A stretch of 7,322 nt of DNA from a virus (taxonomy: Duplodnaviria; Heunggongvirae; Uroviricota; Caudoviricetes). A model generated the notes under the pieces. The model searched no databases. It had not been told where the DNA came from and was given only the letters and a program-made list of their open reading frames with translations. A program made the translations under genes and the position numbers. The stretch is taken from the IMG/VR virus record IMGVR_UViG_2579778968_000003, one strand, 5' to 3'. This document shows, one piece after another, positions 189 to 6,546 of this stretch (position 1 is the first letter of the stretch; every line of letters starts with the position of its first letter).

Positions 189-1484
189 TTAATTTTTCAT
201 TGCTTCGTTATGGGGCATGGTTGGGGCAAACTCGCTTAACTGTGTATTTAACAAAGCTACCTGTGCATTATTGTTTTCAGACATCCATTTTCCGTATACC
301 TGAAATACCATTTGCGCATCTGCATGGCCCATCTGGTTTGCTATAAATGCCGGGTTAGCACCAGCTGTCAGCGACCAGCAGGCATAAGTATGTCTCGACT
401 GATATGATTTTCGATGGCGGAGTCCGGCACGTTTTATCGCTGCGTCCCACATCTGCCTTATTGAGTCAACGGTAAAATGGTCACCATAATTTTTTACTCT
501 CGCTGACACTTCAGGTTGAAAAACAAAGGTGCATTTTTGTTTTTCTGTTCTGCCATACTCTCTGAGGTGAACATCAATGATATGCTCTTTGCTCAGTCTC
601 GTTAATGTCATCTGACTCCGGAGAGCGTCGATTGCTGGCTTAATAAGATGAATGACCCGATTGGTTCCCGCCTGTGTTTTTGGTACCGTGAAACGGTCTT
701 TTGCTAAATTTCTCCTGATCATCATTGTTCCATTTTTCAGATCTATGTCCTCCCATCCAAGTGCACACAGCTCACCAGGGCGAACGCCAGTATAAACAGA
801 AACACACCATAAATTTTTTGCTTGCTGATTTCTGCACGCATCGATAAGACGGATAAATTCCTCCCGCGAAAGAGGATCCGGAATGGTTCTTGATTCCTTT
901 AATGGCGAGATCCCCTTAAACGGATTATCTGGCAGGTAACCGTTATCAACACCAAACTGGAACACGGCGTTAAGATTTGTCATGTAATTATTTACAGTTA
1001 CAGCCGATCTCCCTGGTTGTGTAACAATATAGTTACTTTTGGGGATCTGGTATCCAGTCAGTAGCTCTTTACGAACCTCCAGTAATTTTTCTTTATTAAT
1101 CGATGAGGCAAGATTTTTTTCACCGATTATGCTCAGGATATTTTTGATGACGGCACGGTATGTGTTGAGTGATGTTTTGGCGACTTCAGTTTCTTTCAGT
1201 GCCAGAAATTTTTCAGCCAGTTCTTTTATGGTTAAATCTTGTCGGGCCTCACCAAATTTTTCCAGATTGCGTGAGGAGGGAAACTGTTTTGCATAGTCGA
1301 AAACACCAGTTTTTATTGCGTAACAAACAGAGGAGCGTAGTTCACCTGCAACGCGCCTGTTTTTTGCTGTGTCAGGAACCCCCAGATTTTCCCTGACTCT
1401 TACGCCTTTATAAACAAACCAGATACGTAATTTCCCTCCATGGTTTTCCACGCCTGTCGGATATTTCATTTCAACTTCTCTCAT
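189..1484 (-). CDS. int: Phage integrase, tyrosine site-specific recombinase (lambdoid Int family)
   Basis: 431-codon ORF. N-terminal region ...MKYPTGVENHGGKLRIWF... and C-terminal region ...RHRKSYQSRHTYACW...GHADAQMVFQVYGKW fit the conserved Arg/His/Tyr catalytic region of tyrosine recombinases. It is the last gene of the leftward operon, directly after the excisionase-like ORF. Start is ambiguous: ATG at 1484 has no Shine-Dalgarno, while ATG at 1469 (giving MKYPTG...) is preceded by GAGAGAAG. Confidence 0.9.
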   Translation of the reverse strand: MREVEMKYPTGVENHGGKLRIWFVYKGVRVRENLGVPDTAKNRRVAGELRSSVCYAIKTGVFDYAKQFPSSRNLEKFGEARQDLTIKELAEKFLALKETEVAKTSLNTYRAVIKNILSIIGEKNLASSINKEKLLEVRKELLTGYQIPKSNYIVTQPGRSAVTVNNYMTNLNAVFQFGVDNGYLPDNPFKGISPLKESRTIPDPLSREEFIRLIDACRNQQAKNLWCVSVYTGVRPGELCALGWEDIDLKNGTMMIRRNLAKDRFTVPKTQAGTNRVIHLIKPAIDALRSQMTLTRLSKEHIIDVHLREYGRTEKQKCTFVFQPEVSARVKNYGDHFTVDSIRQMWDAAIKRAGLRHRKSYQSRHTYACWSLTAGANPAFIANQMGHADAQMVFQVYGKWMSENNNAQVALLNTQLSEFAPTMPHNEAMKN

Positions 1485-1503: not shown

Positions 1504-1755
1504 TCAAGTAAGATGACGTCTTGGTCTCGCTGATGCCTGGCGCTCAATCCAGCGATCAATTTCTTCCAGGTTGTAAAAGCATGGACTGTTATCCCATGGC
1601 ATACTGTCATGAGCGACATGCTTATATTCCCTTCCTTCCATAAACGATTTTTCCCGGGCCTTTTTTAACGTACCTTTTTTTATTCCTTTCAGCGCAATTA
1701 ACTGCTCTTCGGATACCCATTTGCCGGGAGAGACAATCATGATTACTTCGCTCAT
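1504..1755 (-). CDS. xis: Excisionase-like small DNA-binding protein (Xis)
   Basis: 83-aa basic ORF immediately upstream of int on the same strand, with xis stop at 1504 and int start at 1469/1484. The ...KGTLKKAREKSFMEGREYKH... segment resembles excisionase-like proteins of enterobacterial prophages as I recall them; not verified by search. Confidence 0.6.
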   Translation of the reverse strand: MSEVIMIVSPGKWVSEEQLIALKGIKKGTLKKAREKSFMEGREYKHVAHDSMPWDNSPCFYNLEEIDRWIERQASARPRRHLT

Positions 1756-1827: not shown

Positions 1828-4299
1828 TTAAGAATCAGCCTGACTCGGGATCAGTTTTTGCCAGATAACTGAAACGTATTTTGCCTGGTAACGGGCGTCA
1901 TCAAGTGCATTATGGCGCTCACCTTCGAATGGAATAGCCGTTCTGGCATCGAAGTCTATGGCTTTCCCCAGCTCAACGATTGTGCGTACATCGCGATCGT
2001 TGTAGTAACGCCACGGGCAGGGGATCCCCTGCCGTTCGTATGAACGGCGCAAAATCGTGTTGTCGAAGTTGGCTCCATTTCCCCAAACCTGAACAAAAAA
2101 TTCACTGGAGTTTTCGTCGATAAATTCCCGCAATTGTAACAGTGCATCATCTAACGGGATTTCATCGGTCATAATGGCAGATTGCGCTTCGCGTGATTGC
2201 TTAAGCCACCATTTAATGGTGTCCCGATCAATGACTCCGCCAGCAGTTTCCAGATCGATAGTCTTACTAAATTCCGGTCCCATATCTCCGGTTTGCGGAT
2301 CGAAAAATATTGCACCTATTGAGATGATCGGGGCATCAGGATTTTTTCCCATGGTTTCAAGGTCGATCATTAGATGGTCACACGTCCTGCTGGTGGATGT
2401 GATTTCGTGATGACCGTTCACCTTAATTGAGTGATCTGCCGTCTCGCCAGTTTCATTATCGCTATTGTGATGCTGATTGCCGCCAGTGTTCTCCTTGTGT
2501 GGATGTTCAGCGCCTTCCATTTCCTCCGGATCATCTTCCTGAACTTCAACCTGATACTCTTCATCGAATGTTTCTTGGTATGTTGCGTCGCCCATCACCG
2601 CGCCACAATCAGGGCAGTTGCCGCCGCCGGTCTGACCGCAGGCGGTGCAGACTTTTTCCACTTCCTGTTGCGCCACTGGTTCAGGCTGTTTCGTTTCTGG
2701 CTCGTTTTGTAACGCATTTGTGCTGTTTTGTTCCGCTTTTTGGTAGTTCCGTTCCGATTCATGCTGGTTCTGGTTCACAGAATCGCGGGTCTGGATCCCC
2801 TTAACCCATTTCGGATCATTCGGGTCACTAATCCCTTCAACAAATTCACCACGTGATGCAGCAAGCAACTTATCGGCGTCAGGCTGGCTGATATTGGCTG
2901 CCTGCATAATTTTGTTTACTTCGTCAGCGGTAACTTTTATCGGCTCTGGTTGTTCTGAATCTTCAGCGGTATCTACATTTTGCGGTAAGCCCGTGTATGT
3001 GCCATTTTTTCGGGCAAAATATTCTTCTTTTGTGATTTCAGTGGCGCCAGCAGCCAGTGCCTTATCCAGACCAGAAAGTTTGTTTGCGCGACCGTATTTT
3101 TCTCCGTCCTTATCTGCGAAGAGGAAATAGAACGGCCCCTCACGCTCTACAGATGGTTCAGCTTCCGGCGCGGTTTCATTTTTTGGGATATCAGATACCT
3201 CAGTTTCCACTGCATCAGTTTGTGTTTCTGATGACTGGAGAACATCAACAGTGCCCAGGTCTGTTTCTTCATTCTCAAACACGCCCTTTGTCGTCAGGTA
3301 TTCGCAGATATATTTGTTCAGTGCTATGGGATCTTTGTGAATGTCGATCGGACGCTCACGGACAAGGCCAAAAATAGTCTGGCGGTCGTAGCGAAGGGCA
3401 TCAGGCTGTTTGCGCATTGATGCCGAGATACGCTTCCAGTCTTCGCGGTCGTTGTCGATAACTTCTTTTTTTGCCCAGCGATGGATGCTGCCGTCAATGT
3501 TTCCGGCATCCACATCACCAGGCCAGAGAGCGTAGGCCAGTTCGTCATCCAGTGTTTTCCATGTCTGCTTGTATTCGCGATGAATGGCAGCAATGACCGG
3601 GCTGATTTTTCCTGTTGAATTTTCAGTGTACTGTTGATTGGCTCTGGCGCGGGCGAGATCAACAACAGACGTGTATTTTCCGGTTTCCTTGCGTTCACCT
3701 TCGCGACGTTTTTTCCAGATGCGCATCTCTGCCTGAATTTCGGGCCATTTAGCACCAGGAATACATTTATGCTTAACCCACCCAATGGCGTGCAACTTAA
3801 GCTCCGGATACATGGCGTTAACTTCTGGCATTTTCATCAACGCTTCAACGATATGTCCGTCGAATGTTGCCATGTCTTCCTGCAACAATTCCTGTGCGCT
3901 AATAACCATATCAACGGTGATGTTTTCACATGTGTCGAACTTAACCATGACAGCGTTCTGTACTTCAGGGGCCAGCTTGTCAAAAGTGACGTTCATCGGA
4001 TCGGATTCAGTCTCAACCGGGACAAAAGAAGCAGACTCCTCATCCCAGCGGTTTTCCTGCATATATTCAGCATCCCATGAATCGAGGGCAGGGCGGGGTA
4101 TGCCAGGTTTATCCTCGCAGACAATAAATTTATAAGCGCAGTCCTGAGCAGCCGGATAATGTTCCAGGAACTGCCAGTGAAATTTTGCTCGAGCACGGCG
4201 TTCGTCGCCAGCTTCAATGGCTGTGGCTACAGCCACAGCGCCTTCTTCCCTTGTTGCCAGTTCGTCAGGAATAGCGGCGCAAATAAAGACTTTACTCAT
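1828..4299 (-). CDS. Large prophage protein with C-terminal DEDDh (DnaQ-like) 3'-5' exonuclease domain, in the recE/exo position; likely the intact counterpart of the K-12 Qin ydfE fragment
   Basis: 823-aa ORF with Shine-Dalgarno GAGG 8 nt before ATG at 4299. The C-terminal ~180 aa carry the three DEDDh exonuclease motifs: ...MIDLETMG..., ...WGNGANFDNTIL..., ...HNALDDARYQ.... A CxxC-x7-CxxC zinc ribbon (CTACGQTGGGNCPDCG) lies at about 2605-2649, and an acidic His-rich low-complexity linker separates it from the nuclease domain. Location between xis and ydfD/dicB matches the ydfE slot of Qin. Confidence 0.85.
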   Translation of the reverse strand: MSKVFICAAIPDELATREEGAVAVATAIEAGDERRARAKFHWQFLEHYPAAQDCAYKFIVCEDKPGIPRPALDSWDAEYMQENRWDEESASFVPVETESDPMNVTFDKLAPEVQNAVMVKFDTCENITVDMVISAQELLQEDMATFDGHIVEALMKMPEVNAMYPELKLHAIGWVKHKCIPGAKWPEIQAEMRIWKKRREGERKETGKYTSVVDLARARANQQYTENSTGKISPVIAAIHREYKQTWKTLDDELAYALWPGDVDAGNIDGSIHRWAKKEVIDNDREDWKRISASMRKQPDALRYDRQTIFGLVRERPIDIHKDPIALNKYICEYLTTKGVFENEETDLGTVDVLQSSETQTDAVETEVSDIPKNETAPEAEPSVEREGPFYFLFADKDGEKYGRANKLSGLDKALAAGATEITKEEYFARKNGTYTGLPQNVDTAEDSEQPEPIKVTADEVNKIMQAANISQPDADKLLAASRGEFVEGISDPNDPKWVKGIQTRDSVNQNQHESERNYQKAEQNSTNALQNEPETKQPEPVAQQEVEKVCTACGQTGGGNCPDCGAVMGDATYQETFDEEYQVEVQEDDPEEMEGAEHPHKENTGGNQHHNSDNETGETADHSIKVNGHHEITSTSRTCDHLMIDLETMGKNPDAPIISIGAIFFDPQTGDMGPEFSKTIDLETAGGVIDRDTIKWWLKQSREAQSAIMTDEIPLDDALLQLREFIDENSSEFFVQVWGNGANFDNTILRRSYERQGIPCPWRYYNDRDVRTIVELGKAIDFDARTAIPFEGERHNALDDARYQAKYVSVIWQKLIPSQADS

Positions 4300-4392: not shown

Positions 4393-4584
4393 TTAAAGAC
4401 CTGCCGGGATTTCGATATTATCCTGGTGAATAACTTTATCGACCGGGTAACAGTTACCGGGAATTTTCTGTTCGGTTGCTGCTGTCATACACTCCTGCAT
4501 TGTCCTGTGAACACTGACTGCAATATCAACTGGCTCTCCGGAAACAAGAAAAACTGTCAGAACAAGCGCAAATGCTGAATTCAT
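4393..4584 (-). CDS. ydfD: YdfD-like small protein with N-terminal hydrophobic (transmembrane or signal) segment
   Basis: 63 aa from ATG at 4584, with Shine-Dalgarno AGGA 8 nt upstream. Sequence MNSAFALVLTVFLVSGEP... has a hydrophobic N-terminus. The start overlaps the dicB stop as ATGA. Length and position match Qin YdfD (63 aa) as I recall it. The ORF track's longer 81-aa version starts further upstream without a Shine-Dalgarno. Confidence 0.6.
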   Translation of the reverse strand: MNSAFALVLTVFLVSGEPVDIAVSVHRTMQECMTAATEQKIPGNCYPVDKVIHQDNIEIPAGL

Positions 4585-4769
4585 TGTGCACATCCTTTTG
4601 GCATCAGACGTAAACGAGCCAGCATTGAAACAATGCATATTTTATTTAATAGCTCCCGTTCTTGTTTTCTCTTGTTAATGGCATCTTCAGTAAATACAGG
4701 GTTACTGATAGTGACACCAATTTCAAAACAACCTTCAGACGTATTAACGTTTGGTAATAACGTTTTCAT
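4581..4769 (-). CDS. dicB: DicB cell-division inhibitor (MinC-dependent FtsZ-ring inhibitor)
   Basis: 62 aa from ATG at 4769, with Shine-Dalgarno GAGGA 7 nt upstream. Translation MKTLLPNVNTSEGCFEIGVTISNPVFTEDAINKRKQERELLNKICIVSMLARLRLMPKGCAQ matches my recollection of E. coli DicB (62 aa). It lies about 175 nt downstream of DicF, as in Qin. The 97-aa version in the ORF track is an upstream extension. Confidence 0.8.
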   Translation of the reverse strand: MKTLLPNVNTSEGCFEIGVTISNPVFTEDAINKRKQERELLNKICIVSMLARLRLMPKGCAQ

Positions 4770-4939
4770 TATCGCGTCCTCAACAATGAATTTTGTGATG
4801 CAGTGCCTGGTGCCTCCAGGTGACGTTAACCAGTTAACAATTAACGCCGGATACAGAGAATCCACCCATAACACTGTTTTTGGTTTTAACTGTTCCGCGT
4901 GCGCTTAGCCGCATTCACCGCATCACAAAATTCACTTTA

Positions 4940-4996
4940 AAAACGGCGGCAGAGCAGTCACGGAGTAAAACTGATACCGCCAAACGTCACCAGAAA
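4940..4996 (-). ncRNA. dicF: DicF small regulatory RNA (Hfq-dependent; represses ftsZ and other targets); ends approximate
   Basis: Minus-strand sequence TTTCTGGTGACGTTTGGCGGTATCAGTTTTACTCCGTGACTGCTCTGCCGCCG followed by TTTTT matches the ~53-nt DicF sRNA as I recall it, including the 5' seed UUUCUGGUGACG. The 3' end has a GC-rich stem (GGCGG...CCGCC) followed by a U-run at 4943-4939, consistent with an intrinsic terminator. Confidence 0.8.
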
Positions 4997-5271
4997 ATTG
5001 ATAACAGAGGGCGTTGCAGCGGGGTTGTCACTTAAGCGTATGGTCAACCTGACAACTCGGTGTCCTCAACGGGGAAGGAATAACCCTGCCATACTTACCG
5101 CCGCGCCATTTCGCGGGTTGCCACAACCGGAAGCGCACGGTCGAATTAAATTTAACGACACCGTACAGTGAGACGAACTTCGCCGTGCGCTTTCGTGTTG
5201 TGTGCCTGCTTTTAACCACGTCAGGCGAGGTGGTATCCTTCTTATTCCGAATAACCAAGAAGGAAATCTAT

Positions 5272-5472
5272 ATGACTAAAGAAGAATTTGTCTCTTATAT
5301 TTTTGATAAAACGGTTGAAATGTATGCCGCTACTTACGGGTCCTGTAATCCTCTGAATAAACCAGAGGGGAAAGATGATTTCGACAAAATTTACCGCTTC
5401 TTGGAGGACCGCTATATCAAAAGGTTAGAGGACGCAGGGATCAAATCCCCAGTGAAGTCACCATTGTCCTGA
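5272..5472 (+). CDS. Hypothetical 66-aa protein encoded antisense to the dicB-operon leader (putative)
   Basis: ATG at 5272 is preceded by a strong Shine-Dalgarno AAGAAGGA with a 7-nt spacer. Product MTKEEFVSYIFDKTVEMYAATYGSCNPLNKPEGKDDFDKIYRFLEDRYIKRLEDAGIKSPVKSPLS is hydrophilic, charged and protein-like. A weak sigma70-like promoter candidate lies upstream: TTAACC (5212-5217), 16 nt, TGgTATCCT (5232-5239). The 3' end overlaps the convergent 121-aa ORF by 32 nt. No homolog recognised. Confidence 0.3.
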   Translation: MTKEEFVSYIFDKTVEMYAATYGSCNPLNKPEGKDDFDKIYRFLEDRYIKRLEDAGIKSPVKSPLS

Positions 5473-5806
5473 GAACTTGCAGGACGTCATGATCGTAACT
5501 TCCATCCAAACCGCGACAGCAAATTGCTTCTCGTATTACCGGAAGCAGTTCGCTGGAAATCTCGGTGCATATTTCACCTGATAATACGCCTGGCTCAAGT
5601 GAGAATATTGGTGAACTTACGGTCTTGGTCTCGACAGTTTCAGAGTCAGTGCCAACATTATAAAGCTCAACGAAAGCGGTCTTGATTTTCCGGGCCAGAT
5701 CTTTTGCTGGCTCGCTTGCAATATCTTTCCCGATTTCTCGCAGCACAGAATGCAATGTATGAGCTGCTGTTTTCTGTACATCAGACGGTAAATCTTTAAA
5801 TTCCAT
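5441..5806 (-). CDS. Hypothetical 121-aa protein in the ydfB/ydfC position of the dicB operon (possibly an unsplit YdfB-YdfC)
   Basis: ORF with ATG at 5806 (MEFKDLPSDVQK...) preceded by GAGG with a 6-nt spacer. An alternative ATG at 5818 overlaps the ydfA stop as TGATG. Position between ydfA and DicF matches ydfB (42 aa) plus ydfC (72 aa) of K-12 Qin, whose combined span is similar in my recollection. Confidence 0.6.
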   Translation of the reverse strand: MEFKDLPSDVQKTAAHTLHSVLREIGKDIASEPAKDLARKIKTAFVELYNVGTDSETVETKTVSSPIFSLEPGVLSGEICTEISSELLPVIREAICCRGLDGSYDHDVLQVLRTMVTSLGI

Positions 5807-5817
5807 CGTCAGCCTCA

Positions 5818-5970
5818 TCAGTCAGTGTTTCTGGCTAACCAGCAACGCGCGCCAGATTCGGTTTTAAACGTTTTGCTTTTGGTATATGTCATCGCGGTGA
5901 ACGTACCGTCCTGGTTGGGGAACACGCCACATACCAGAGATTCGCTGTTGCCAAGATCGATAGTATCCAT
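5818..5970 (-). CDS. ydfA: YdfA-like small protein, first gene of the dicB operon
   Basis: 50 aa from ATG at 5970, with GAGG 5 nt upstream. Translation MDTIDLGNSESLVCGVFPNQDGTFTAMTYTKSKTFKTESGARCWLARNTD matches my recollection of Qin YdfA (51 aa). It is the first ORF downstream of the operator-containing region that follows dicA. Confidence 0.7.
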   Translation of the reverse strand: MDTIDLGNSESLVCGVFPNQDGTFTAMTYTKSKTFKTESGARCWLARNTD

Positions 5971-6050
5971 GCTGACCTCATTTCCCCTTAACGCCGGGGT
6001 CGCGGAACTGTTTGCTGAGAACACCGTGCGGTGTCTTGATGGAAAGTAAT

Positions 6051-6106
6051 TTAGAATAACCTAACATGAGAGGCAAGTGTTTTTTGTTAGATTGATCTAA
6101 CAAAAA
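6051..6106. promoter_or_regulatory. dicB-operon promoter/operator region: near-perfect 26-bp palindrome plus a degenerate second site
   Basis: 6081-6106 is TTTTTGTTAGAT-TG-ATCTAACAAAAA with 12-bp arms. 6051-6064 is TTAG-aataac-CTAA. Both share the TTAG-N6-CTAA core with the sites in the dicA/dicC intergenic region. Located between the dicA 3' end and the ydfA start, where a repressor-controlled promoter for the dicB operon is expected. Confidence 0.6.
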
Positions 6107-6138
6107 GAGTGGGCGCAACTAATCACTTGAAAAGAATG

Positions 6139-6546
6139 TTATTTTATTGATTTATTTTTACGCGCTTTAAGCATTTCTTCGAAGAGTTTGTTGAAGTTTT
6201 CTACTCTTGCGCGCATTTCAGACAGCAAGGCTTCCTGCTCGGAAGATGGAAGAGCATCGAATAATTCGATCAATTCTTTGTGGTTGGGAGTTAGCTCTGT
6301 TTCCACATGAAGTTCTTGTGCAGGCACTGGTGCCTTGTCTTCGTCACCAAACATTAGCCATGTAGGTGAGCACTTCAGAGCATCCGCTAAAGCAAACAAT
6401 CGTTTTCCGACTGGCTGGGTTTCGTCTCTTTCCCATTGTGAAATTGTGACGTGAGCAACTCCAGCGAGGCGCGCAGCTTCTCGTTGTGTTAAGCGTAATT
6501 CTTTTCGTCGCGCCAGAACTCGCTGGCCTAGGGTTCTTGTATCCAT
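6139..6546 (-). CDS. dicA: DicA-like prophage repressor (XRE-family HTH; cI/C2 functional analog)
   Basis: 135 aa, the same length as K-12 DicA. N-terminal HTH ...LRLTQREAARLAGVAHVTISQWERDETQP...; the rest, ...KRLFALADALKCSPTWLMFGDEDK...EMRARVENFNKLFEEMLKARK, closely resembles DicA as I recall it. Divergent from a cro-like gene. Confidence 0.88.
   Translation of the reverse strand: MDTRTLGQRVLARRKELRLTQREAARLAGVAHVTISQWERDETQPVGKRLFALADALKCSPTWLMFGDEDKAPVPAQELHVETELTPNHKELIELFDALPSSEQEALLSEMRARVENFNKLFEEMLKARKNKSIK

Follow-up and report, generated by a model that had tools for sequence, protein, structure and literature searches.

The small frame orf66, opposite the DicF leader of a lambdoid phage, is very probably a protein-coding gene in the sieB slot

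This work concerns orf66, a reading frame of 66 codons on the plus strand (positions 5272-5472) of a 7,322-nucleotide stretch of DNA from a member of the Caudoviricetes (IMG/VR record IMGVR_UViG_2579778968_000003), in the following termed the window. We hold it to be very probable that orf66 is a real protein-coding gene and that it resides in the slot taken by sieB in classical lambdoid phages. Judged by sequence comparison, it is an exchangeable cassette gene and not a component of the conserved leader of the small RNA (sRNA) DicF, opposite which it was noticed. With distinctly less assurance we also favour the fuller proposal that orf66 is a genuine accessory gene of the moron type, equipped with the promoter, the mode of silencing and the partnership described below. 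We are far less sure of any particular function. Two ideas have the best support: that the product works in the prophage state as an exclusion or regulatory factor, and that it partners the C-terminal domain of the protein encoded by the convergent neighbouring gene. A dedicated regulator of DicF and a non-functional frame are both unlikely.

The program-made list of open reading frames (ORFs) contains a plus-strand frame of 95 amino acids starting from a GTG (5185-5472), within which the ATG at 5272 yields MTKEEFVSYIFDKTVEMYAATYGSCNPLNKPEGKDDFDKIYRFLEDRYIKRLEDAGIKSPVKSPLS, a product of 66 amino acids whose stop codon ends at 5472. The Shine-Dalgarno (SD) sequence AAGAAGGA lies at 5257-5264 and is separated from this ATG by the spacer AATCTAT (7 nt). 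An earlier reading of the letters alone, here called the sequence-only reading, had pointed to exactly this combination of an ATG, a strong SD with a 7-nt spacer and a frame of 66 codons ending at 5472, and it is borne out by the sequence. To judge from the comparison of homologues, the ATG at 5272 and not the GTG at 5185 is the true start, because all homologues open with MT(K/N)EE, because the NCBI Prokaryotic Genome Annotation Pipeline (PGAP) sets the same start and because the in-frame part upstream is a conserved non-coding element.

As the window holds 83 ORFs of at least 30 amino acids, a frame of this size is unremarkable in itself. It is conservation, seen in the homologues, in the ratio of non-synonymous to synonymous substitution rates (dN/dS) and in an excess of third-position differences, that lifts orf66 beyond chance. 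A search of 5.8 billion proteins returned full-length homologues at 89, 88, 86, 73 (Cedecea), 57 and 54% identity; at 54-89% identity these are 65-66 amino acids long and their frame is intact, with a single codon-sized in-frame indel. A distant relative of 73 amino acids (P0022, E 1.3e-11) was found in a profile search of 1.84 billion representative proteins, and SD and ATG are kept in all lineages, P0022 included. Among the homologues synonymous divergence is near saturation while the amino acids are conserved, and the differences concentrate at third codon positions (for example 20/13/34 by position). Codon alignments give dN/dS values of 0.11-0.28 over the whole of orf66 and, where dS could be estimated, of 0.07-0.24 over codons 1-55, which are free of overlap with any other gene. 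The sequence-only reading had proposed to compare frame conservation and substitution types, and the outcome favours a protein: the frame is kept and dN/dS is 0.07-0.28 throughout. The product is predicted to be a soluble two-helix protein, the AlphaFold2 (AF2) model being a hairpin of helices 3-22 and 31-54 at a predicted local distance difference test score (pLDDT) of 81, with a less confident tail. It matches PHROG 34441 at E 1.5e-50, a family to which no function is assigned.

The window covers the left arm of a Qin/Rac-like lambdoid phage together with its immunity region and comprises the following features:

189-1484, minus strand: integrase gene
1504-1755, minus strand: excisionase gene
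1828-4299, minus strand: exonuclease gene, 823 amino acids
4393-4584, minus strand: ydfD
4581-4769, minus strand: dicB
4944-4995, minus strand: DicF sRNA (Rfam RF00039, 72.5 bits, E 5.5e-15)
5000-5240, minus strand: upstream leader of DicF, common to Qin-like prophages (megablast and alignment)
5204-5239, plus strand: 36-nt element, conserved beside diverged orf66 homologues and in many phages
5231-5239, plus strand: putative extended -10, TGgTATCCT (own scoring and geometry of P22 sieB)
5236-5243, plus strand: 5' hairpin arm TCCTTCTT, a perfect complement of the SD that overlaps the putative -10
5257-5264, plus strand: SD AAGAAGGA, at the same time the 3' hairpin arm (sequence, fold and covariation)
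5272-5472, plus strand: orf66 (ORF, PGAP coding sequence WP_000159335.1, PHROG 34441)
5441-5472, both strands: 3' overlap of the convergent genes, 32 nt
5441-5806, minus strand: convergent gene for a hypothetical protein of 121 amino acids (WP_001320327.1-like, PHROG 33007)
5818-5970, minus strand: DUF1391 (ydfA-like) gene
6139-6546, minus strand: DicA-like repressor gene
beyond the repressor, plus strand, from left to right: cro/dicC-like and ydaT-like genes

This locus is essentially identical to the matching part of phage mEp460_ev081 (LR597641.1) and to that of the prophage adjoining rspB in derivatives of E. coli B/BL21, where orf66 falls within 2187434-2188013 of NC_012947.1. Its layout agrees with the sequence-only reading in that orf66 runs convergently and antisense to the early-left (dicB) operon, overlaps the 3' end of the upstream ORF by 32 nt (5441-5472) and lies in a stretch of about 445 nt between that ORF and DicF (5441 to 4995).

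orf66 thus faces the early-left operon; it lies between the gene or genes that come first in this operon, beside the repressor, and the kil/sRNA module, which here is DicF-dicB. Because a 36-nt element upstream of it and this architecture match those of lambda, P22, Rac and e14, sequence comparison identifies orf66 as another cargo of the place that sieB occupies in the classical phages. In lambda, the element lies at about 34395-34431 and sieB (34482-35036, plus strand) abuts N (35037-35438, minus strand). In P22, the element is found at 29650-29684, and gene 24 (minus strand) faces sieB (plus strand), the coding sequence of which begins at 29758. The Rac prophage of E. coli K-12 carries a diverged element upstream of sieB (plus strand), which is faced by racR-ydaG-ydaF (minus strand) and followed by KilS-kilR (minus strand); ydaF encodes a DUF1391 protein, and the sRNA KilS and kilR take the places of DicF and dicB. 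In e14 of K-12, a canonical element precedes ymfI (plus strand), with which ymfK-ymfJ (minus strand) are convergent and with which ymfJ overlaps by 63 nt. Among the loci compared, the element copies are located at about 8566-8600 of L198 (Rac), 5425-5459 of L199 (e14), 1398-1432 of L201 (lambda) and 1504-1538 of L200 (P22), and a further copy is present in L076 (reverse complement, about 3467-3600).

The element (5204-5239, GCCTG-CTTTTA-ACCAC-GT-CAGGC-GAG-GTGGT-ATCCT) is built from two interleaved inverted repeats, S1 (GCCTG/CAGGC, 5204-5208/5222-5226) and S2 (ACCAC/GTGGT, 5215-5219/5230-5234). It is retained upstream of orf66 homologues at only 54-57% protein identity, and compensated variants of the repeats occur in Rac (S1 CCCGG/CCGGG) and in L076 (S1 GCCGGG/CCCGGC, S2 GCCAT/ATGGT). 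A pattern scan located it in at least 120 viral contig loci with variable flanks on both sides, and BLAST found it in 152 phage records including lambda, P22, SfV, HK620 and Shiga toxin (Stx) phages; it was also seen in Klebsiella phages. A pseudoknot, alternative hairpins, an operator and a terminator-like insulator all remain as readings of the element. At the gathering threshold Rfam reported DicF alone, and at E up to 5 on 5000-5500 it reported nothing for the element. A reading as a nut-like site on the plus strand (boxA TGCTTTTAAC with a boxB hairpin) was dropped when the boxA-like part turned out not to be conserved in L003 and L004, as were readings as a CRP or LexA box, the half-sites of which misfit by eye.

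What follows the element differs from phage to phage. Behind it stand no fewer than 12 unrelated ORFs, the shortest of 65 codons and the longest of more than 100, with their ATG fixed at +48 to +53 from TCAGGC; they include an ECs_2282-family zinc ribbon, a BssS-like protein, a YmfI-family protein and a protein with two transmembrane (TM) segments. The cargo loci are among L079-L197 (for example L174, L186, L172, L175, L092, L107, L112 and L144), and the families comprise CxxC-containing proteins of 81/76 amino acids (MTFDEKELDNAINK..), a BssS-like protein of 83 and a YmfI-family protein of 95 amino acids, so that the slot acts as a cargo hotspot. The two-TM ORF of E. coli Ec1117 (L071, 2775-3023, plus strand; 82 amino acids, MSQPPINPLKNMKIDYWYK...) stands behind the same element and hairpin, was left without annotation by PGAP and had no match in PHROG, NCBIfam or PADLOC; it is likely another real cargo gene, and a related longer version occurs in L169, L090 and L093. 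In Serratia (L077/L078, reverse complement, about 2435-2540) the element is followed by a CxxC protein of 63/77 amino acids, a second small ORF in plus orientation (81 amino acids) and then the convergent gene, which shows that two genes can share the slot in tandem.

By analogy with sieB, the sequence TGgTATCCT (5231-5239) would serve as an extended -10 with a transcription start site (TSS) at about 5246, and TTTAAC (5211-5216) or TTAACC (5212-5217) are weak candidates for the -35. The counterpart in e14 is TGgTATGCT, in which the pattern T-A-T-n-n-T is kept. The P22 record BK000583.1 annotates the sieB promoter at 29690-29720 and the RNA start at 29727, and the position predicted from this geometry equals the plus-strand start near 5246 that the sequence-only reading had guessed. 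Both P22 and lambda carry the hairpin segment as a tandem duplication (..ACCCCTACAGCGAGAA.. and ..ACCCCTACAGAGAGTAA..). The -10 annotated in P22, TAAACT, overlaps the 5' arm (CTCT) of the second hairpin, and the RNA starts in the loop, 7 nt after the -10. In both phages the annotated -35 of sieB falls into the loop of the first copy, the -10 and TSS into the second (P22, L200 1536-1600; lambda, L201 1430-1490), and the -10 has been lost (TTCTCG) from the hairpin copy that adjoins the element.

The leader of orf66 contains one such hairpin. The sequence TCCTTCTT, which runs from the -10 onward (5236-5243), is the exact complement of the SD AAGAAGGA (5257-5264), and the hairpin appears in the minimum-free-energy fold. 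In other leaders the arms differ yet remain complementary (TCCTTTTA/TAAAAGGA, TCCTCT/AGAGGA, ATCCTTAA/TTAAGGAT, TCCTTGC/GCAAGGA, TCCTTCA/TGAAGGA and, in L003, TCCTTTTAAGT/ACTTGAAAGGA), and the pair at alignment columns 13/24 is seen as C-G, U-A, A-U and G-C. For 21 distinct leaders, the arms of which were extracted and anchored by a script and the loops replaced with a fixed linker, the covariation score is 0.261 versus 0.148 for shuffles; none of 500 shuffles reached the observed value, and the score peaks at zero slide. Another hairpin at the stop codon of orf66 (GTCCTG..CAGGAC, 5467-5486) was considered as a common terminator and rejected, as it is not conserved in L003 or L074.

The gene that converges with orf66 encodes 121 amino acids according to PGAP (5441..5806, minus strand) or 125 from an upstream ATG at 5818. 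The overlap at 5441-5472 encodes ..PVKSPLS* on the plus strand and ..MVTSLGI* on the minus strand. The protein is modular: roughly residues 1-55 form a conserved N-terminal domain and roughly residues 71-121 a C-terminal one. orf66 and the convergent gene occur together in every lineage with an identity of at least 54%, a transposed copy among them, although this association is confounded by their physical overlap, and their identities fall together (orf66/121-aa protein: 100/99, 91/81, 88/74 and 73/57%). In L003 and L004 the partner has 129 amino acids and has the C-terminal domain alone in common with the 121-aa protein. On the Cedecea contig, the C-terminal domain alone is encoded by an uncalled ORF that has an SD and ATG of its own (PHROG 33007 positions 71-121, E 2e-15); in this metagenome-assembled genome (MAG) of Cedecea sp. 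(L005, about 3736-3900, minus strand) the C-domain ORF MGKEQVILTGELTIEIAGEVLPVIREAIRRKGLEGDYDHYVMPVIRTMAISLGV... has lost the usual stop and continues antisense through orf66. The N-terminal domain is elsewhere (proteins P0044-P0047) joined to other C-termini, each of which faces a different convergent small ORF, of 76 amino acids in L076 and 81 in L077. Values of dN/dS for the C-terminal domain are 0.14-0.47 in distant comparisons and 0.5-1.1, on few substitutions, in close pairs. The AF2 model of the entire 121-aa protein was too poor for a fold search (pLDDT 52), and for the C-terminal domain alone two helices are predicted with low confidence. Weak matches to archaeal histones were seen for the N-terminal domain of about 55 residues (NCBIfam E 0.049; PDB HMfB E 0.029).

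We propose that these parts form a cassette of three components: the 36-nt element with the promoter/hairpin leader, orf66 and the 3' part of the convergent gene. A sigma-70 promoter of the sieB type would fire in the lysogen while the DicA-like repressor silences the opposing operon, and an mRNA of about 225 nt with a strong SD would give rise to the soluble two-helix protein. This protein may act as a prophage accessory factor, in exclusion or in regulation, with the C-terminal domain of the 121-aa protein as its probable partner. Upon prophage induction, convergent early-left transcription would cross orf66 and, through collision or antisense pairing, silence it. The hairpin may add a further layer of control, in that an mRNA starting at about 5246 would be devoid of the 5' arm and leave the SD free, and any plus-strand read-through RNA would have its SD paired and be untranslatable.

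Several observations weigh against parts of this proposal. With a weak -35, TATCCT scores 8/12 before the TG bonus in our own scoring, and a consensus scan of 4850-6150 returned neither a promoter upstream of orf66 nor terminators; supplementary Cappable-seq and SMRT-Cappable-seq tables list nothing relevant. The transfer of the promoter by homology is indirect, because the promoter of P22 and lambda lies in the duplicated hairpin copy and not in the element-adjacent one. It may also be the minus-strand early transcript in which the hairpin acts: the counts of G-U versus A-C (11 versus 16) do not settle the strand, and in 28 of 36 leaders, a non-independent set, the fold is slightly more stable in the minus sense. 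orf66 has no match in Pfam, NCBIfam or PADLOC and no similarity to SieB; homology to the SieB family was not detected by Pfam, PHROG or NCBIfam, and the fold, a 66-aa two-helix hairpin, differs. The PADLOC defence models matched neither orf66 nor the 121-aa protein, a Foldseek comparison of orf66 with the PDB and the viral BFVD yielded nothing below E 0.6, and a sequence-profile search of the PDB nothing below E 0.7. In L074, the most distant lineage, the convergent gene encodes 63 amino acids without detectable homology to the C-terminal domain (hhalign probability 0.2%), and the partnership of orf66 with this domain could reflect mere physical linkage through the overlap.

The partnership can also be given more weight than in our proposal. 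It is possible, though rather doubtful, that orf66 and the C-terminal domain constitute a dedicated two-protein module, an effector with an inhibitor or immunity partner comparable to SieB/Esc or to toxin/antitoxin pairs, in which the overlap makes expression mutually exclusive and orf66 mainly controls its partner rather than the host or incoming phages. The pair co-occurs in every locus that holds either member, and the two diverge together; the Cedecea cassette, relocated so as to lie between cro and a cII-like gene, has retained the C-terminal domain alone under an SD and ATG of its own; purifying selection acts on the domain in the distant comparisons; and both parts are predicted to consist of two helices, the low confidence for the C-terminal domain being what folding on binding might produce. 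Co-inheritance is, however, to be expected anyway from an overlap of 32-56 nt, and other slot cargos likewise bring a C-terminal segment of their own, which marks a recombination junction and not necessarily a function. The unrelated partner of the distant homologue in L074 and the dN/dS values of the close pairs, few as their substitutions are, also speak against the module.

A broader reading is offered with similar reserve: the element and the covarying -10/SD hairpin may together form a portable expression and insulation platform at a hypervariable accessory-gene hotspot, with orf66 and the C-terminal domain as a new two-component module for exclusion or self-immunity. The hotspot proposed would range over lambda, P22, Rac, e14, Qin-like prophages, SfV, HK620 and Stx phages. 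If this held true, the element could be used to harvest a whole class of small prophage effectors.

The sequence-only reading had treated orf66 as a feature of the DicF leader that might interfere with the production of DicF and DicB, and neither view is upheld by comparison. In a megablast search with 5000-5500, 4316 E. coli genomes matched only 5000-5213/5240, and the ORF-bearing part was found in about 390-410. Homology of the leader thus ends at a mosaic junction with the orf66 cassette at about 5213-5240, which is also evident from alignment with the K-12, O157-like and Ec1117 versions: the place of the cassette is occupied by ydfB-ydfC in Qin of K-12, by an ECs_2282 zinc-ribbon gene and higBA in an O157-like prophage and by a different plus-strand ORF in strain Ec1117. 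Mosaic junctions can fall inside orf66 as well, since truncated remnants of 16-22 codons with element, hairpin and SD intact (from 3972 in L067, 4001 in L068 and 1957 in L069) are recombination scars. orf66 homologues are, in turn, found apart from DicF. L010 and L062-L066 carry one without DicF and dicB, the Cedecea homologue lies between cro and the cII-like gene, Rfam detected no DicF in the homologue loci L003-L006, and blastn with the DicF of the window found no match in L010, L062-L066 or other orf66 loci (L074 left out). The position of DicF, between the sieB-slot cargo and a kil-type gene, is taken by a tRNA in the Logan contigs L003 (4257-4329, minus strand) and L004 (3968-4040, minus strand) and by KilS sRNA in Rac (L198, 8406-8503, minus strand), so that different stable RNAs recur at one early-left site.

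Since leader and cassette differ in distribution and homologues occur without DicF, a dedicated role in the control of DicF/DicB is without comparative support. It is accordingly improbable that the plus-strand unit serves mainly to damp DicF/DicB output by transcriptional interference or antisense pairing, with the peptide being secondary. The unit does converge with the dicB operon, between the promoter-proximal genes and DicF, and antisense control is documented in the slot, where the sas RNA of P22 acts on sieB mRNA (PMC12197685, PMC7067206). Against this stand the purifying selection on the protein in its non-overlapping part, the homologues in prophages devoid of DicF or dicB and the DicF prophages that have another cargo or none at this place (ydfC and a degenerate element in Qin of K-12, a different ORF in Ec1117). 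Effects of collision or antisense pairing on the opposing operon are possible, as for any gene in the slot. Least credible of all is that orf66 is a conserved non-functional frame or an annotation artefact kept open through some other constraint on the DNA, such as the RNA of the opposing operon: the family is tiny (13 profile matches at E up to 0.001 among the 1.84 billion representatives, the last three apparently spurious) and the tail, residues 55-66, lies on DNA shared with the convergent gene, but the near-saturated synonymous divergence with conserved amino acids, the codon-sized indel survived by the frame, the SD and ATG kept in every lineage down to P0022 and the absence from the ORF list of the window of any long antisense ORF spanning 5272-5440 all speak against it.

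As an ORF, orf66 is not new. The sequence-only reading took the stretch for one conventionally counted as non-coding, which does not agree with its annotation: the frame is a PGAP coding sequence, the RefSeq hypothetical protein WP_000159335.1 (for example in E. coli strain 104 and BL21-type strains), is carried in the phage record mEp460_ev081 and has a PHROG of its own, 34441. The cassette (window 5241-5820) is present in 408 of 5426 complete E. coli genomes, in 405 of them at 99% identity or more, and, with one exception, the full-length cassette rows sampled have annotations for both convergent genes. The exact protein occurs on at least 1000 contigs, and a UniRef entry exists. Two cassette-bearing contigs, L008 and L010, are labelled as MAGs of Veillonella parvula and Geobacteraceae, probably through mis-binning or contamination. 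A literature search for WP_000159335 and for ECs2282 gave no match. Already known, then, are the annotation of the ORF and the classical architecture; the conserved leader with its swapped cargos is a useful regularity that has possibly been under-appreciated.

Once placed in the sieB slot, what was an anonymous hypothetical protein becomes a candidate for a prophage-state factor in exclusion, defence or the regulation of the neighbouring early gene. As E. coli B/BL21, the standard laboratory strain for expression, carries orf66, as do some 7.5% of complete E. coli genomes, the proposal is easily testable. The sequence upstream of DicF is not one long non-coding precursor; it consists of a conserved leader of about 240 nt, and the remainder is a swappable cassette. 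The element furthermore provides a sequence handle by which swapped small ORFs can be listed, several of which have been missed by current annotation.

Among known systems, the dicB operon of Qin (ydfABC-dicF-dicB) shares the operon layout of the window, and DicF and its proximal leader are 99-100% conserved between the two; K-12 differs in having the ydfB-ydfC module in place of the orf66 cassette and a 12-nt deletion in the element. With IS10 the likeness concerns the leader. In IS10, fold-back inhibition rests on an inverted repeat that pairs the ribosome-binding site unless the transcript starts at the gene's own promoter. The orf66 leader resembles that of IS10/Tn10 in that, by sequence, -10/TSS-proximal nucleotides can pair with the SD, and differs in that its TSS is a predicted one and that the early transcript of the minus strand is an equally possible site of action for its hairpin. 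A TSS inside the hairpin holds for the annotated sieB start of P22, in the homologous second hairpin, on the P22 annotation only.

Genes antisense to prophage lytic genes are characteristic of accessory loci (Owen et al. 2020, PMC7067206), and antisense control is on record for the sieB slot itself in the form of the P22 sas RNA directed at sieB mRNA (PMC12197685, PMC7067206). Like morons and other prophage accessory loci, orf66 is a self-contained gene opposed to a lytic operon; unlike them, it is not followed by a recognisable terminator, and the hairpin at its stop codon is not conserved in distant homologues. Also comparable are ymfI/ymfJ of e14 and the other slot cargos (the ECs_2282 zinc-ribbon, BssS-like and YmfI families). 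Their proteins are unrelated to that of orf66, and they too are plus-strand ORFs 48-53 nt after TCAGGC, with an SD that pairs with -10-proximal sequence, and are convergent and overlapping with the first early-left gene.

The classical counterpart is sieB of lambda, P22 and Rac. SieB and the orf66 protein have no sequence or fold similarity, SieB being a protein of 162-192 amino acids in the annotated records with Esc produced from an internal start, and in P22 and lambda the leader segment of sieB is duplicated and the start lies 50-75 nt further from the element than that of orf66. sieB is reportedly expressed from the prophage, as described by Susskind and by Ranade and Poteete. It shares with orf66 the 36-nt element and a homologous leader segment in front of the gene, and likewise slot and orientation: both genes face the early-left operon, abut or overlap the gene in the position of N and lie upstream of the kil module in the sense of the minus strand.

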